UHGV virus genome: UHGV-0038722
Length of the DNA: 29,986 bases
Reading direction: 5' to 3' (one strand)
Origin: a virus
In this document: in pieces, positions 3,796-29,268 of the stretch
Layout: each line of letters begins with the position of its first letter
How positions within the stretch are numbered: the first letter of the stretch is position 1
The notes under the pieces: model-generated
The model's database searches: none
Told to the model about the DNA's origin: nothing
Seen by the model: the letters and a program-made list of their open reading frames with translations, nothing else
Position numbers and translations under genes: made by a program

Positions 3796-5922
3796 TTACT
3801 CCTGTGCTATTCCGCTTAGCGACGCTACAATGCCAGCCCTCGCTAAGCGATTGAACTCTTCGTTTCCAACTGCATCACGTATTGCTTTTACGGCGGCTTT
3901 ATTTGCCATAAATCTGCGTTCCGCCGCCGCTAATGCTTCTTTACTTCCGCCAGCTCTTACTGCTTTCGTGGCTTCCTGAACTGCTTTCTCTATCGCATAT
4001 CGACCGCTACGCGTGGTGGCAATTTTAGATACAGCACCTTTTAACCCGGCGCCAACTAAAGCACCCGCGGCAGCGCCTGCAATACCCCCTCCAGCGCCAC
4101 CAACAATGGCACCTGATGTTGAGTTGGCAATTGCATTTAACACTGTTGATGTGACGTTGGATAAACCAGCATCCAGATCGCGTAGTACATTGGCAGTTCT
4201 CCCTGTTCTTTCAATATACTGCTGAGGTTTCACTGCCGCTCTTGCAAGAGTGCCATATGCATCAGCAATTCTTCCGAGATCTGAGGAATATCTGCTAATG
4301 GCTTTTACATTTTGTGGGGTAAGTATCCCTGCGATATGGTTAATTCCTGCTGCATCAGCTTTGCCACCACGTACACCATGCGAGATAGCATCTTGCAACA
4401 TTGATGATATAGCAGGAACACGCTCTGATTCTGGCAGCGCGCGGATCATAGAATGGAACCCAGCAGGACCATTAAGACCTTTAGCTGACGATGATTGAAG
4501 GGATTTTACTCCATTCGTAATCAGTGCATCTGTTGCCAAATCACGCCCGAAAACAGACTCTGCACTCTCTTGTGCTGATAACCTCGCTTTAGACAGATCA
4601 TTAGCTTTCTGCCAGTCATCAAGAAATCCGCCGTTTTCCGCCATTGTGCGCATATCATCAGTAATTGCCCGGCGTATTTCCCCTGCTCTCCTTGCCGCAT
4701 TTGCCTCTCCGCTACGCTTATATTTTTGCTCCGCATCAGCAAATTTCGCTCTCCATGCTTTCATGCCATCAAATGTTACTCCACCTTGATTGTTTGCCTG
4801 AACAAACTGTTTCATTTCAGGAGTAAGTGGTATGCCAGCAGATCGCTCTGCCTGAATAACGGCATTACCATTTAGCATTCTTGCTTTTTGATTTGGCATT
4901 GTTGACCGCACGTCATCCCATGCCGCGCGCTCGGCATCCTTCATCTGATCAAGATTTTGAAGAATCCTTTGTTTTATAGCCGCACTTTTTTCTGATGCCG
5001 TTCCAGATGCGGCCCCAAATTCATCAAGGTTTCGACTTAACTTTGATGATATTTCGTTAAATGCTGCCTGATGGGCGTCCTGAACAATTCCTGGTGTTGA
5101 TGCCAATGCGCCTTCAGCTTGTGCAATTCCACGACTTCCAGATCGCATTCCTGGTGTTAATGCGTTTATATCAATTCCAGCAGACTCAGCCGCTTTTGCT
5201 ACATCTTCGGACACATTAGCGGCCTGACTGGCAATTGACTGACGCCCAGCACCTGACTTTGCCATCCTGGAAACATCATTAGCAGAATTCAGTGCTGCAC
5301 CACCAAGAGCCTGTGAAACCCTTGGCGCAATAACGCGCCCGACACCTGAAAGAACGCCTTGAGCACCAATATTGATACCACCGTTAATGGCAGCATTTTG
5401 TGCAAAATCGCCCTCCTGATTTGCAGCATCAGCAAGAGAACCTGCAATCATGTTTCCTGCGGAACCGATATCTCCAGCGAGCTTTGCTGGCGCTCCAGCA
5501 GCTTTTGCCGCTGTGCCAATTGGCAGGAGATACCCACCAATTGTTTCACCGGCTTGCGCGTAAGGGTCTGTCGGTCGATCGACTGGACGATAGACATCAT
5601 CCAATACTTTTGGCCCACCAAGCCCCTGACTGATTGCATTAATCAGACTTGCGCCACCCTGCAATACGTCAAATGGTATGTTTACCAGACCACGACCAGC
5701 CTGTTCTGCAATTTGCCCTGCACTTTGACCACCAGTGAGCCAATCGCCAGCTTGTTGCATCAATGATGGTTCTTCACGCGCTGGTTCATTATTGGCCTGA
5801 TTAACTGTTTGTTGCTGAACAGCCTGACCAGCAAAATACTCATCAATGGCGGTGCCAATATCTTCCGTGCTCGTACCATCAGGGAAGGTAAATGTCTTTC
5901 CGTTTGCAGTTACTTTCATCAT
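3796..5922 (-). CDS. Ejection (injection) protein, P22 gp16-like
   Basis: 708-aa ORF, Gly/Ala-rich; last of gp7-gp20-gp16 triad by position and N-terminal similarity to P22 gp16. Confidence 0.75.
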
Positions 5923-7250
5923 TCCACCGTAAATTGAATGCCTGATTTTGAGGTATATGATCCGGATTGACTCTGCTGCTGTTGGGTATTTGTCGGTTGT
6001 TGGTTATTGCTCTGTTGTTGCGCAGGCTGCTGAATATCTTCATACAGCTTGGCTTTTCTGGATTGCAATTGCTTAGTTAGTCCGCTGGGGAGAGAATCTC
6101 CATAAGTTGAAAGATAATCATCCATTTGCTGGTTAAACTTTTCGCCTTCAGTATTTGCCATCAGTTTTGAGGTGTTGATTAAGTCTTGGACTTGCTCATT
6201 ATTCAGCATCTTGCCGTTAGATAATTGGCTAACATAGTTACCAAGTGTGCCAAATATTCCATCAGTGCGTTTTACCTGCACTTGCTCACCTTCGCGTACC
6301 ACAGATTGCGGATCCAGCGATTTCATATAGTTGAAAATCATTCCCAACTGCGCGGCTGGAGTGTTGCGCTTCCCAAGGGCTTGTAGGTTGTCAGAAGCAC
6401 TGCGCATTGCAGAATAATTCTTTGAGAACCCATTAATATCACTATTCAGATCTCGAACAAGTTTTGGGTCAATCTTTCCGCTTTCCTGTTGTTTCATCCC
6501 TAATTCCTGCAACTTCAGGGCTACGTTATCATTATGCATTTGTGCCCGCTGAGCCCTGTCTAGTTGAGCGTTTTGGATATTTGCCCATCCTCTCGCGTTC
6601 TCCATGTCAGCCTGACGGATGCTTTCATCCAATCGCCCTTTCTCAAGTTGGCGACCAACCATCTTATCCTGATAATCCAGCATTTTATCCGGACCAACAG
6701 CCCCTAGCGTCATAGTAGTCAGCATGTGTGATAGCTGCTCTGGATTCTGAATACCTGTCTGAATCATCCAGTCAGCATTCGCCCCCACGCGATTTAACCT
6801 GTCCTTGTTGTCAGTAATGAATTTACTGTAGGCTTCCGGTCCCTGAGAAAGAGCGACGTTAGCCCTCATGGCTAAATCGCCCATATCGTTGCGTTGCTGC
6901 TCATTAAGACCGGAAAACGCCTGTTGTGCCTGCGCAACAAACGCTGGATTTTCCTTGGCAAACTTAAATAGTCCCGATGGATCACCAGAAGCCCATGCAT
7001 CAGCATGAACCTTATTGAACGCATTAATCGCTTTCTGTTGCTGTTCCTGCTTATAAATATCAGCAACTCCAGCCAGACCACGTAACGCGGTCAGACCAAC
7101 GTTATTTGCACCTGAGCGAGCCAGTTCATTGTTTTCGCGGATCAGACCAAGCGTTGCGTTAATGTCGCTTGCCTTTGGCGCATTCTCATTTTGCGTACCG
7201 ATGCCAGCCAGAAAACCACCAGAATTAATACCCTGTTGCCACGTAGCCAT
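5919..7250 (-). CDS. Ejection protein, P22 gp20-like
   Basis: 443-aa ORF between gp7-like and gp16-like genes; Q-rich C-terminus; overlaps gp16 start by 4 nt. Confidence 0.75.
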
Positions 7251-7955: not shown

Positions 7956-8411
7956 CTATCTCCCGTGATTCAGGAAGTCGATTAGTTCTTCGCGTGTAGC
8001 ACTGTAAAATGTCACGTCATCCACGCCTTTGAAGTATTTCTTGATGGTTCCTACACGCTTAAGGCCAATCATTGCGCAGTACATCTGCCCGTGGCGGAAT
8101 TTGCGTGCAGCGAACGATGTGACGCACTGAACGGTGGTGTTAGTCAGAATGTATCGCCAGAACGCCAGCCCGATTTCCTTGCTGAAGCCGCGAATCTCTG
8201 GCAGGTACATGGCGTGGCAATCAAAGGTCAGCGGCTGAATCTCCTGATAGTAAACAATGCCGCCGAACTGCCCGTGCACGCTCACCTCAAAGTAACGGCA
8301 TTCAGGTTTGTAGTCGTATCCATCGCCGTTGTTGCTACCGGCGATAATGTCAGGGTGATTTCCTACTGCTTCGATCAGGTCGATGTTTCGCGTTGGTTTG
8401 AATGTAATCAT
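7956..8411 (-). CDS. P22 gp14-like virion assembly/ejection-associated protein
   Basis: 151-aa ORF at the gene-14 position between tail needle and gp7; assignment by position. Confidence 0.5.
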   Translation of the reverse strand: MITFKPTRNIDLIEAVGNHPDIIAGSNNGDGYDYKPECRYFEVSVHGQFGGIVYYQEIQPLTFDCHAMYLPEIRGFSKEIGLAFWRYILTNTTVQCVTSFAARKFRHGQMYCAMIGLKRVGTIKKYFKGVDDVTFYSATREELIDFLNHGR

Positions 8412-24749: not shown

Positions 24750-25019
24750 TCATTGCTTCATCTCCCTTTCCATTTCATCAATGTCAACGTCATCAGGAAG
24801 ATGGGAGCAATACGCCGCTATACCATGATGATTTATCTCATACCCTTTGAACGTTACCATCTGGCGCGTAATCTCAACTTCGTTCAGGAATCCGTCATCG
24901 CATAACTGCCTGGCTATTTTCGATTTGGTCTGGATTATTGGTAGTGCCTGTTCTTTCAAAGCGCATGATATTTGTGCATCCCATGCCTTTTCGAGAATGG
25001 CTAATTGTTTTTTATTCAT
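24750..25019 (-). CDS. Hypothetical protein at the ren position
   Basis: 89-aa ORF, ATGA overlap with helicase stop; no family recognised. Confidence 0.5.
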   Translation of the reverse strand: MNKKQLAILEKAWDAQISCALKEQALPIIQTKSKIARQLCDDGFLNEVEITRQMVTFKGYEINHHGIAAYCSHLPDDVDIDEMEREMKQ

Positions 25020-26470
25020 CAGAATCCTCCTTTCTTCTTGGACTGCGGTTCCTCGCGTTCACGGCGGCGCATTTCAGCAGACTGTTGGTCTGTGTCATAA
25101 ATAGCGCCATTTGCCTGAATGCAATACACCGTGCCGGTATTGCCATGACGATTGAGGCGAAGGATTAGTTCGGTTTCACCAGGAGGAACGCTGTCATCAA
25201 AAGCACCTTCACGATGGATCCCCACCCAATAATCGCAATCCTGTTCAATCTGCCCTGTATCTCGTGAGTCACTTGGTAATGGGCGTTTATTGGTTCGGCT
25301 TTCCAGTGCGCGGTTAAGCTGTGTCAGAAGCACAACAACGCAATCAAGCTCTTTGGCAAGGTTCTTCAGTCCTTTGGTGATCATGCCGTAAGCAAGGTCG
25401 TTGCGATCGGCCTTTTCAGCGGTCATTAGTGTCAGGTAATCGACCAGAATCATGCCAACACATCCTTTTTCTCGCTTGATTCGACGGCTTTCGCTGACGA
25501 TTTGAGCCAGAGATAATCCCGGCGTGTCGTCGATGTAAAGCAGGTCGATTTCACTCAAGCGATTGGCTGTTTCGATCGCCCTGTTGAAGTCACCATCGTA
25601 ATCACCCTGATAGCCGTCATCAGCGTCATTTGTCGCCGGAAGGTAAAAAATATTCGGGTTAACACCTGACTTCTGTCCCACCAGTTTTTCCAGTATCTGG
25701 TCACCTGGCATTTCAAGGCTGAACATCAGAGCGGGCTTTTTCTCATGCACTGCGCAGTTGATTGCCATCTGGCTGTATAGCGTCGTTTTCCCCATCTTAG
25801 GGCGAGCGCCAATGACAAACAGAGAGCCTTTCACCAGACCTTTCGGTGACAGCATCCTGTCCAGCGATGGGATCCCTGTGCTCATTCCTCGTTGTTCGCC
25901 TGACGGGTCAAATCGCTTCTCAAGGTCGCTAACCCAGTCTTCCATGACCTCACCAAATGAGCGAAGGCCGCGACGCGATCCGGTTTTTGCATGGTCTGTC
26001 AGTTGCGTGAAAATCGCCTGAATAGCTTCGTACTTCTGCGTTGCAGTCATTCCGTTGCGGGAATAGAGCAATTCCGTCGCTTCAGTCATGCGGTTGATGG
26101 CGTAGCGTTCCATTGCGGTTTCACGAACCTGCATTGCATAGGCAACGATGTTTGCTGCGCTTGGCGTGTTCTTTGCGATCTCAGCGATATAAGCAAAACC
26201 GCAAACAGACGCCGTTAACGATTTGCGCTCCAGTTCATCGAAAAGCGTCAGGCCATCTACTGGCTTTTGCTCCCGGTGCATTCTGGTTATTTCTTCGAAA
26301 AGGATTTTGTGTGGTCGGCTGTAAAATGAATCAGGCTTCAGCATCGCCAGAACTTTCTGGACGCGCTCACTGCTGTCATCATCCAGAAGCAATCCACCAA
26401 TCACCGCCTGCTCTGCCTCGATGCTATGGGGCGGCGCATAAAAATTATCGGTCATCGTGTTCACCCTCAC
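25019..26470 (-). CDS. Replicative DNA helicase, DnaB-like (P22 gene 12-like)
   Basis: 483-aa ORF; DnaB N-terminal SIEAEQAVIGGLLL; Walker A GARPKMGKTT; alternative start MTDNF at 26455. Confidence 0.9.
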   Translation of the reverse strand: MRVNTMTDNFYAPPHSIEAEQAVIGGLLLDDDSSERVQKVLAMLKPDSFYSRPHKILFEEITRMHREQKPVDGLTLFDELERKSLTASVCGFAYIAEIAKNTPSAANIVAYAMQVRETAMERYAINRMTEATELLYSRNGMTATQKYEAIQAIFTQLTDHAKTGSRRGLRSFGEVMEDWVSDLEKRFDPSGEQRGMSTGIPSLDRMLSPKGLVKGSLFVIGARPKMGKTTLYSQMAINCAVHEKKPALMFSLEMPGDQILEKLVGQKSGVNPNIFYLPATNDADDGYQGDYDGDFNRAIETANRLSEIDLLYIDDTPGLSLAQIVSESRRIKREKGCVGMILVDYLTLMTAEKADRNDLAYGMITKGLKNLAKELDCVVVLLTQLNRALESRTNKRPLPSDSRDTGQIEQDCDYWVGIHREGAFDDSVPPGETELILRLNRHGNTGTVYCIQANGAIYDTDQQSAEMRRREREEPQSKKKGGF

Positions 26471-27344
26471 GAACTTTCAGGTAGGTATTGTCGTTAAGCA
26501 GGAAATCAAATCCCTTTTTGTGCCAGACGGTTCCGCGTTGATGGTTTGGACGCTCTTCGAACATCCATCGGCAATTTTCGCCTACGTAGCTCAAATAATT
26601 TCTCCAGTCCTGCATCGTGAAACCATGCCCGTCAAGCTGTCGGGTTATCACTCCGGCTTTGCGCCAGAACGTTCGGATCTGGTTTTTACGCTTGTCATTC
26701 AGTGCGCGGATTTTTGGCGCTTCAGGAAGGATTTCGTGGTAAGCATCGACAACATCCTGACAGCTAACGGAAGGTTTTTTCTTGTCAGACTTTTTGTCTG
26801 CTGCGGTACTCTCTAATACGTCAGTATTAGAGATAATATTATTATATTCTTTATCTGTGGTAATTTGCTGGTAATCTGCTGGTACAGTATTGCTTGCAGG
26901 CATTGGTATTGCTGGCTTTGAGGTGGTAATTTGCTGGTAATCTGCTGGTACAAAATTTGACTGATAATCGTCATATTTCTCTACCGAGAAAACTGAGAAT
27001 TTACCGTGTGAAACCCAGTCAATCATGCCGAGTTTTTTGAACTTTCTAAGCAGGTACTGAACGCGATCTGGTTTGAGTCCTGTTTCAAACGCCAGAGAGT
27101 TTCTACCGCCAAGTAGCTTCCCTCTGCCTACCAGAATTTCTCCTGCGTCAGTCATTACATACTCAGGCGTATGCTTTGCTTTGAGGATTAAGTGAACCCA
27201 CAGATGCGCAGCTTCTGCGTCCTTGTAAAACGGCACATCCATAATTTTACGGTGCAGCAAGGCATACCCCTTACCGCTGCTTTGATGCGGTTGTTGTAGC
27301 CTTCTGGCCTCTCTGGCTTCGGCTAGATTAGATATGTTACTCAT
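26445..27344 (-). CDS. Replication initiator, O-like (P22 gene 18-like), containing origin iterons
   Basis: 299-aa ORF upstream of helicase; internal protein repeat [10 protein letters not shown] x2 coinciding with DNA iterons. Confidence 0.8.
26857..26952. repeat. Origin iterons: 30-bp direct repeat gtggtaatttgctggtaatctgctggtaca at 26857-26886 and 26923-26952, each built from a ~10-bp sub-repeat tgctggtaat
   Basis: Direct repeats 66 bp apart inside the O-like gene, analogous to lambda ori iterons within O. Confidence 0.7.

Positions 27345-27915: not shown

Positions 27916-29268
<1,353 letters not shown>

Follow-up and report, generated by a model that had tools for sequence, protein, structure and literature searches.

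A 3+3 array of 11-bp iterons inside the O-like initiator gene of a P22-like coliphage: a probable replication origin of the HK022/HK620/VT2-Sakai type

The window (the whole stretch of viral DNA that was analysed, 29,986 bp) is a P22-like coliphage/prophage mosaic in inverted orientation, with Huey, phiv205-1, CUS-3, and HK620 as its closest phages. The repeat considered here belongs to a replication module on the minus strand, in which the gene of an O-like initiator is directly followed by a DnaB-type helicase gene that overlaps the initiator end; a cII homologue and a DUF2740/orf48 homologue are located upstream of the initiator in the direction of transcription. The features of the module are listed below with their window coordinates.

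26445..27344, minus strand: O-like replication initiator gene, 299 aa (ORF; PHROG 345; 98–100% identical to O of HK022, HK620, VT2-Sakai, and mEp235); initiator domains: N-terminal, origin specificity (residues ~1–128), iteron-encoded linker (~129–195), and C-terminal, helicase side (~195–299)
26923..26952, minus strand: iteron block 1, gene positions 393–422, first piece of the HK620 rep_origin; units TGTACCAGCAG (26952–26942), ATTACCAGCAA (26941–26931), and ATTACCAC.. (26930–26923), the latter running into the spacer
26887..26922, minus strand: spacer of 36 bp, encoding 12 residues and containing one in-phase degenerate unit, AAAGCCAGCAA
26857..26886, minus strand: iteron block 2, gene positions 459–488, identical to block 1, second piece of the HK620 rep_origin; units at 26886–26876, 26875–26865, and 26864–26857
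26834..26856, minus strand: AT-rich tract AGATAAAGAATATAATAATATTA, with 2 G/C in 23 bp, directly after the array in the direction of transcription
26810..26833, minus strand: perfect palindrome TCTCTAATAC-TGAC-GTATTAGAGA, with a 10-bp stem and a 4-nt loop, putative right-hand origin element
25019..26470, minus strand: DnaB-family replicative helicase gene, 483 aa (Pfam DnaB, DnaB_C; TIGR03600 phage_DnaB)

The initiator ORF was matched to PHROG 345 ("replication initiation O-like") with an E-value of 4.7e-88. For this protein, the Pfam and NCBIfam searches gave nothing above the cut-off (DUF7376 was reached at a sub-threshold level only, and there was no match to Phage_rep_O), the PDB search retrieved no solved relative, and BLASTP against lambda O resulted in an E-value of 4.7, i.e., no detectable pairwise similarity. 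The putative "O-like" assignment rests on PHROG membership, gene order, and architecture. A single-sequence AlphaFold model of the initiator had a pLDDT of 44, which is too poor for defining domain boundaries or a DNA-binding fold. The downstream helicase was recognized by TIGR03600 phage_DnaB (E = 1e-174, 581 bits vs. a curated cut-off of 499) and is presumed to be the partner of the C-terminal domain of the initiator. The array itself covers residues 132–163 of 299 and is placed between the N- and C-terminal domains.

The 30-mer GTGGTAATTTGCTGGTAATCTGCTGGTACA is present in two exact copies (26857–26886 and 26923–26952) with a start-to-start distance of 66 bp, and this pair is the longest exact direct repeat of the 29,986-bp window as well as the only one of at least 20 bp. 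In 20 mononucleotide shuffles of the window the longest repeat measured 13–16 bp, and the chance expectation for identical 30-mer pairs is approximately 4e-10. The original prediction had described a 30-bp element found twice at a distance of 66 bp, which holds, and had considered each copy to be built from a sub-repeat of about 10 bp, which has to be corrected, as the internal period of each copy is 11 bp according to Tandem Repeats Finder and the autocorrelation of the 96-bp region has its maxima at 11, 22, and 33 bp (0.51, 0.42, and 0.37, respectively). Read on the coding (minus) strand, each block consists of TGTACCAGCAG / ATTACCAGCAA / ATTACCAC, the third unit being truncated/degenerate (ATTACCAC..), and the six 11-bp direct units are grouped into two identical triplets at a distance of exactly six periods (66 bp). 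The unit can be written as (T/A)TACCAGCA(G/A), with a core in the order (T/A)CCA(G/A)C, and appears as TTACCAGCAAA in the comparison of lineages below. When the window was scanned for the 11-mer allowing up to two mismatches, 24 matches were obtained (10 ± 3 expected), and both the exact and the clustered ones were confined to the iteron region. The label "66-bp tandem duplication" used in the original prediction is right about the spacing and misleading about the copies: only 30 of the 66 bp are duplicated, in the order block, unique 36-bp spacer, block, which amounts to 1.45 copies of a 66-bp unit. On the protein level, the duplicated 10-residue segment that had been predicted was recovered at residues 132–141 and 154–163. 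No inverted repeat or dyad was detected inside the blocks by a scan that does detect the dyads of the lambda and P22 iterons. A reading of ATTACCACA as a DnaA box was rejected on direct reading, as it does not fit TTATNCACA.

The window was compared with phage L/ST160, HK629 (Sf6 type), Enterobacter phage CobraSix, and Erwinia phage 59, as well as with Pantoea phage PA-1, Klebsiella phage ST512-KPC3phi13.1, Yersinia phage 30.14, and Cronobacter phage ENT47670. The N-terminal domains of these eight relatives range from 64% down to 43% identity to that of the window, and all eight have, in the same order, three 11-bp units, a spacer, three further units 66 bp on, an AT-rich tract at the same place, and a palindrome with a 9–11-bp stem. 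The presence of 3+3 units 66 bp apart in eight diverged phages indicates that this phage did not acquire its two triplets by a recent duplication: the duplication named in the original prediction is ancestral to the family and represents its conserved state. In a more distant relative, from a Vibrio phage, 11-bp arrays likewise follow immediately on the N-terminal domain, and no obvious 11-bp array was found in a Shewanella relative. All six units of every phage compared share the CCA core in the same phase, and the surrounding positions are lineage-specific, as can be seen from the unit sequences:

this window: TTACCAGCAAA
phage L: TGTCCAACGGA
HK629: TGTCCAACGGT
CobraSix: TGTCCAGCCGA
Klebsiella ST512-KPC3phi13.1: GTGCCAACAGA
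Pantoea PA-1: TTACCAACAGA

The mean identity between block 1 and block 2 of the same phage is 0.94, compared to 0.68 for blocks and 0.49 for spacers between phages, values that point to a concerted evolution; all six units change together between lineages. Iteron identity follows the identity of the N-terminal domain (Spearman rho 0.64) and not that of the C-terminal domain (rho −0.15), in a set of non-independent pairs whose iterons directly adjoin the N-terminal coding part on the DNA. Physical linkage may partly account for the correlation with the N-terminal domain, and a mosaic junction lies just downstream. The spacer is the most polymorphic segment among close alleles (7/36 sites) and also the least conserved one between lineages; in terms of SNP density across 65 close alleles, the blocks differed significantly neither from the spacer (p = 0.09) nor from the remainder of the gene (p = 0.5).

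The array is followed by the region of lowest GC content in the gene (26810–26869, GC 0.225), which includes the AT-rich tract, presumed to be a DNA-unwinding element. The adjacent palindrome is conserved by compensatory changes within the coding region: among eight distinct sequences, compensatory double changes occurred at 8 of the 10 pairs and one-sided (G-U type) changes at none, and 97.5% of the palindrome cells were paired vs. 29–48% when the partner was slid by 1–3 columns. Folded as single-stranded DNA, it has an energy of −8.6 kcal/mol (z = −4.6). No polymorphism was observed in the palindrome among the 65 close alleles, a result that is not statistically significant. Since wobble intermediates do not occur, the constraint may concern DNA, in which each of the two strands counts, and not RNA, although this pattern is suggestive only.

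The two halves of the initiator gene recombine independently around the array. HK629, IME10, HK75, mEp234, and others match the gene at 96–98% only from position 491 on, just past block 2, and upstream of this position these phages carry an Sf6-type N-terminal domain together with Sf6-type units. In Erwinia phage 59, the N-terminal domain and the 3+3 iterons of this family are joined to a lambda-O-like C-terminal domain, and the gene downstream of the initiator is lambda-P-like. Such combinations follow the classical two-domain logic, in which the iterons travel with the N-terminal domain and the helicase or the loader with the C-terminal one.

A period of 11 bp is not divisible by 3, so that each unit of a block falls in a different reading frame, and the 10-residue block peptide has no internal repeat, whereas the DNA has one. 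The block peptide varies between lineages, while the layout of 3+3 units of 11 bp and the 66-bp spacing are kept. Between phage L and HK629, one base change at the eleventh position of the unit turns D into V and M into L in concert. The preservation of the DNA layout under a varying peptide implies that the repeat is selected as DNA and that the linker sequence is dictated by the DNA element.

The number of blocks is not fixed among related prophages. Since 66 equals both 6 × 11 and 22 × 3, the gain or loss of a module preserves the reading frame as well as the 11-bp phase, and all the block-number variants found are in frame, with changes in whole blocks only:

1 block, 277 aa: found at three IMG/VR loci; of two distinct sequences, one is on 32 contigs and the other on 7, among them contigs of 4.67 and 5.39 Mb
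2 blocks, 299 aa: the state of the window and by far the commonest; some clusters on at least 1000 contigs
3 blocks, 321 aa: at least 26 sequences, some on chromosome-size contigs; DNA-level confirmation in L082/L089 and L088
4 blocks, 343 aa: several sequences, on complete chromosomes

Alleles with one or three blocks were told apart by exact-pattern scans, in which the two-block pattern was present in at least 80 stretches. BLAST of the junction sequences against complete E. coli genomes was uninformative on block number, as it joins partial two-block matches into full coverage. The helicase was intact in two of the three one-block loci examined. The spacers are identical within a multi-block allele and differ between alleles (PMPAS, PMPVS, QMPAS, PMPAG), a distribution that indicates independent and recent expansions on different backgrounds. 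The expectation that a copy-number change would alter both the origin and the linker of the protein is thus borne out by natural in-frame alleles with 1, 2, 3, and 4 blocks. A comparable situation was described for lambda-type Stx phages with four vs. six iterons, where O is 13 residues longer owing to the two additional iterons, on which the replication of P27-derived plasmids depends (PMC7466680).

Over all 900 bp, the initiator gene has 98.4–99.6% nucleotide identity to those of Stx2 phage 86, CP-1639, mEp235, VT2-Sakai, HK620, HK630, and HK022, and its product is 98% identical to the O protein of HK620. The GenBank record of HK620 (AF335538) contains a two-piece rep_origin at gene positions 393–488, which corresponds base for base to 26952–26857 of the window, and the record of phage L has a "putative origin of replication" annotated at the equivalent place. 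The paper on phage L proposed that the likely ori is formed by six 11-bp repeats of the homologous gene, and reported that P22 gp18 is 25% identical to L gp18 and that P22 has four repeats of ~20 bp (PMC8022706). Both the HK620 and the phage L origin annotations are themselves predictions by analogy. Among Stx phages the module is known as Eru3 (eru3A/eru3B), a group that includes VT2-Sakai, in a paper in which iterons are unmentioned (Llarena et al. 2021, PMC8044961), and the functional work on Stx-phage origins addresses lambda-type O and ori (PMC7466680). In the searchable literature, no experiment (origin cloning, footprinting, initiation mapping) was found for the HK022/HK620/VT2-Sakai origin class, and a full-text search with the iteron sequence retrieved the phage L paper alone, which carries the L-type unit. 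The origin type was present in about 217–229 of 5,426 complete E. coli genomes. Judged by sequence, the repeat is the already annotated, predicted origin of the HK022/HK620/VT2-Sakai type, and this interpretation is not new; a modest degree of novelty lies in the tripartite layout shared across the family with its covarying iterons, in the series of 1–4-block alleles, and in the compensatory evolution of the palindrome.

We consider it highly probable that the array is the replication origin of a P22-like coliphage/prophage with an Eru3 module, located inside the linker-coding part of its own initiator gene. The origin iterons within an O-like gene that had been proposed from the window gain support from the HK620 rep_origin, the array of phage L, the AT-rich tract with the palindrome, and the concerted change of the units, all of which are consistent with such a function. 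In lambda, an O-some is formed, the AT-rich tract is unwound, and the helicase is recruited via the C-terminal domain of O. By analogy, the N-terminal domain of the O-like protein would bind the units, probably head to tail and on roughly one helix face, the head-to-tail mode being suggested by the fact that the units are direct repeats without a dyad. The resulting O-some-like nucleoprotein complex would strain and open the adjacent AT-rich tract, after which the DnaB-type helicase that the phage itself encodes in the next gene downstream would be recruited by the C-terminal domain. The palindrome would act as DNA, either by forming a hairpin/cruciform or by binding a symmetric protein, during the opening or the loading of the helicase, which is the option we favour. 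Unequal recombination or slippage involving the 30-bp blocks would add or remove the 66-bp module, and such events, with frame and phase kept, could explain the natural alleles with one to four blocks.

The binding unit could also be larger than assumed here. If the whole 30-bp block were recognized, the origin would have two sites, each for one O oligomer, and the 11-bp substructure would only reflect the way in which the block was once formed; the blocks are indeed identical over 30 bp and usually kept near-identical within a phage, their third unit is truncated/degenerate, and the copy number changes by whole blocks only. We nevertheless regard this as unlikely, because the CCA core stays at the exact 11-bp phase in all six units of every lineage and because changes of the unit appear in each unit (TGTCCAACGGA in phage L vs. 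TGTCCAACGGT in HK629), as recognition of the individual units predicts.

Readings without an origin at this place fare worse. The array might be a cis site for something else, such as a host protein, a transcription/regulatory element, or a recombination hotspot at the mosaic boundary, and it is true that the array is closely followed by the mosaic junction and that the lambda record marks recombination points inside the lambda ori. A mosaic boundary is, however, compatible with an origin, and even expected for one situated between two protein domains, while a site for a host factor would not be expected to change in concert with the N-terminal domain of the phage protein across hosts, and the array is neither DnaA-box-like nor a dyad; we consider such a role very improbable. 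Equally hard to sustain, if not slightly more so, is a function on the protein level only, in which the duplicated linker peptide would tune the spacing of the domains, with no cis role of the DNA and the origin located elsewhere. It would agree with a repeat that is in frame, as are all its natural copy-number variants, and with a segment for which no secondary structure is predicted, albeit by a low-confidence model. The period of 11 bp is, however, not a multiple of 3 and leaves the peptide without an internal repeat, the peptide is not conserved between lineages when the DNA layout and the 66-bp spacing are, the eleventh-position change between phage L and HK629 affects two different residues (D to V, M to L) in concert, and the flanking AT-rich tract and the covarying palindrome are features of the DNA.

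Read as a replication origin, the module drives, by prediction, the replication of the Stx2a prophage of E. coli O157:H7 Sakai and of many related prophages. The unit sequence, swapped together with the N-terminal domain under a strict layout, would provide a ready-made specificity series, and the natural 1–4-block alleles a natural dose series for origin strength. We also propose, as a speculative and somewhat unlikely extension, that the 66-bp module is a variable "origin VNTR" in E. coli prophages, with a block number that tunes the strength of initiation, and, as a separate point, that the palindrome is an essential hairpin for the loading of the helicase. If the origin-VNTR reading were true, block number would set burst timing, the outcome of the lysis-lysogeny decision, or the resistance to origin-titrating interference, and each step of one block would also lengthen the linker of the initiator by 22 residues.

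Compared to well-known origins, the one proposed here resembles lambda ori in that it is embedded in the initiator gene, where an N-terminal, origin-binding domain meets a C-terminal one that recruits the helicase, and in the order of iterons, AT-rich tract, and palindrome. The lambda iterons are, however, four in number, ~18–19 bp long, and have an internal dyad, whereas those of the window are 11-bp direct repeats without a dyad in a 3+3 arrangement, and lambda recruits the host DnaB through P, while the module of the window encodes its own DnaB-type helicase. In P22, the origin is annotated inside gene 18, with iterons, an AT tract, and a short palindrome, and the DnaB-type helicase gene 12 is located downstream. 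P22 gp18 matches the initiator of the window in the C-terminal part only (25% identity, E = 1e-4), its N-terminal domain being unrelated in sequence, and the P22 iterons measure ~20 bp and contain a GGTAAA/TTTACC dyad, in contrast to the units of the window, which have none. With a different N-terminal domain and ~20-bp dyad iterons, an alignment with P22 gene 18, which had been recommended for counting the repeat units, is unusable for this purpose.

Much closer are phage L, ST64T, ST160, Sf6, HK629, HK75, and mEp234 (gene 18/gene 43/O), whose initiators are 64–68% identical to that of the window, with a near-identical C-terminal half. They likewise have six 11-bp direct units in a 3+3 arrangement with a 66-bp block spacing, and share the AT tract and the palindrome, but their unit is TGTCCAACGGA or TGTCCAACGGT (= TGTCCAACGG(A/T)) in place of the (T/A)TACCAGCA(G/A) of the window, and their N-terminal domain is only 48–58% identical. 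The two types would represent different origin specificities within the same architecture. HK022, HK620, VT2-Sakai (Sp5), mEp235, and Stx phage 86 (Eru3) have the same blocks, spacer, AT tract, and palindrome, as well as the downstream DnaB-type helicase; there is no difference of substance between them and the window, which belongs to this group.

Comparison of the Sf6/HK629-type O genes, a sister type with another N-terminal domain and other iteron units, with the HK022-type to which the initiator of the window belongs placed their mosaic junction within the AT-rich tract, immediately past block 2 (the second 30-bp iteron element), with 96-98% identity between the two types from there onward, and thus the predicted origin is also a recombination boundary. 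The features considered here, in the window and at related loci, are as follows:

Window 26834-26856: mosaic junction of the two O-gene types (Sf6/HK629 and HK022), AT-rich tract, gene position ~491
Window 26813-26974, minus strand: 53-aa ORF spanning the iteron region, on the coding strand but in a different frame
Window 28792-29268, plus strand: 158-aa ORF that overlaps the cI/C2-type repressor gene at the latter's 3' end
L086 (1-block allele locus) 5257-6707 and 8060-8386: frameshifted helicase gene and IS3-like transposase ORF
Erwinia phage vB_EhrS_59 (MH443101) 886-1836 and downstream: chimeric initiator gene and the gene following it
Vibrio phage 1.157.O (MG592525) 925-1671: distant initiator relative

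The 53-aa ORF, which contains a repeated peptide of its own (10 residues), most likely exists only as a consequence of the DNA repeat rather than as a true gene. The 158-aa ORF, in which an internal Met precedes a hydrophobic, signal-peptide-like stretch, is a possible moron, an accessory gene expressed from the prophage.

Many members of the 4-block protein cluster (cluster of P0001) are partial proteins of 152-195 aa located where contigs end. Origin arrays with several blocks may often interrupt short-read assemblies, and block number may therefore be under-reported in draft genomes. At one of the three 1-block loci, L086, the allele adjoins the frameshifted helicase gene and the transposase ORF, a setting suggestive of prophage decay. 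The helicase gene is intact at the other two.

The vB_EhrS_59 initiator is a natural chimera, in which the N-terminal domain and 3+3 iterons of the window's O-like family are joined to a C-terminal domain resembling that of lambda O ('AAEWMFDVVKAI...'). A lambda-P-like gene lies downstream in place of a DnaB-type helicase. In the Vibrio phage 1.157.O relative, the N-terminal domain is ~31% identical and is directly followed by two differing 11-bp tandem arrays (CAAACGAATCG x3 and GAGAATAAGGA x4); the 11-bp period may reach well past enterobacterial phages.
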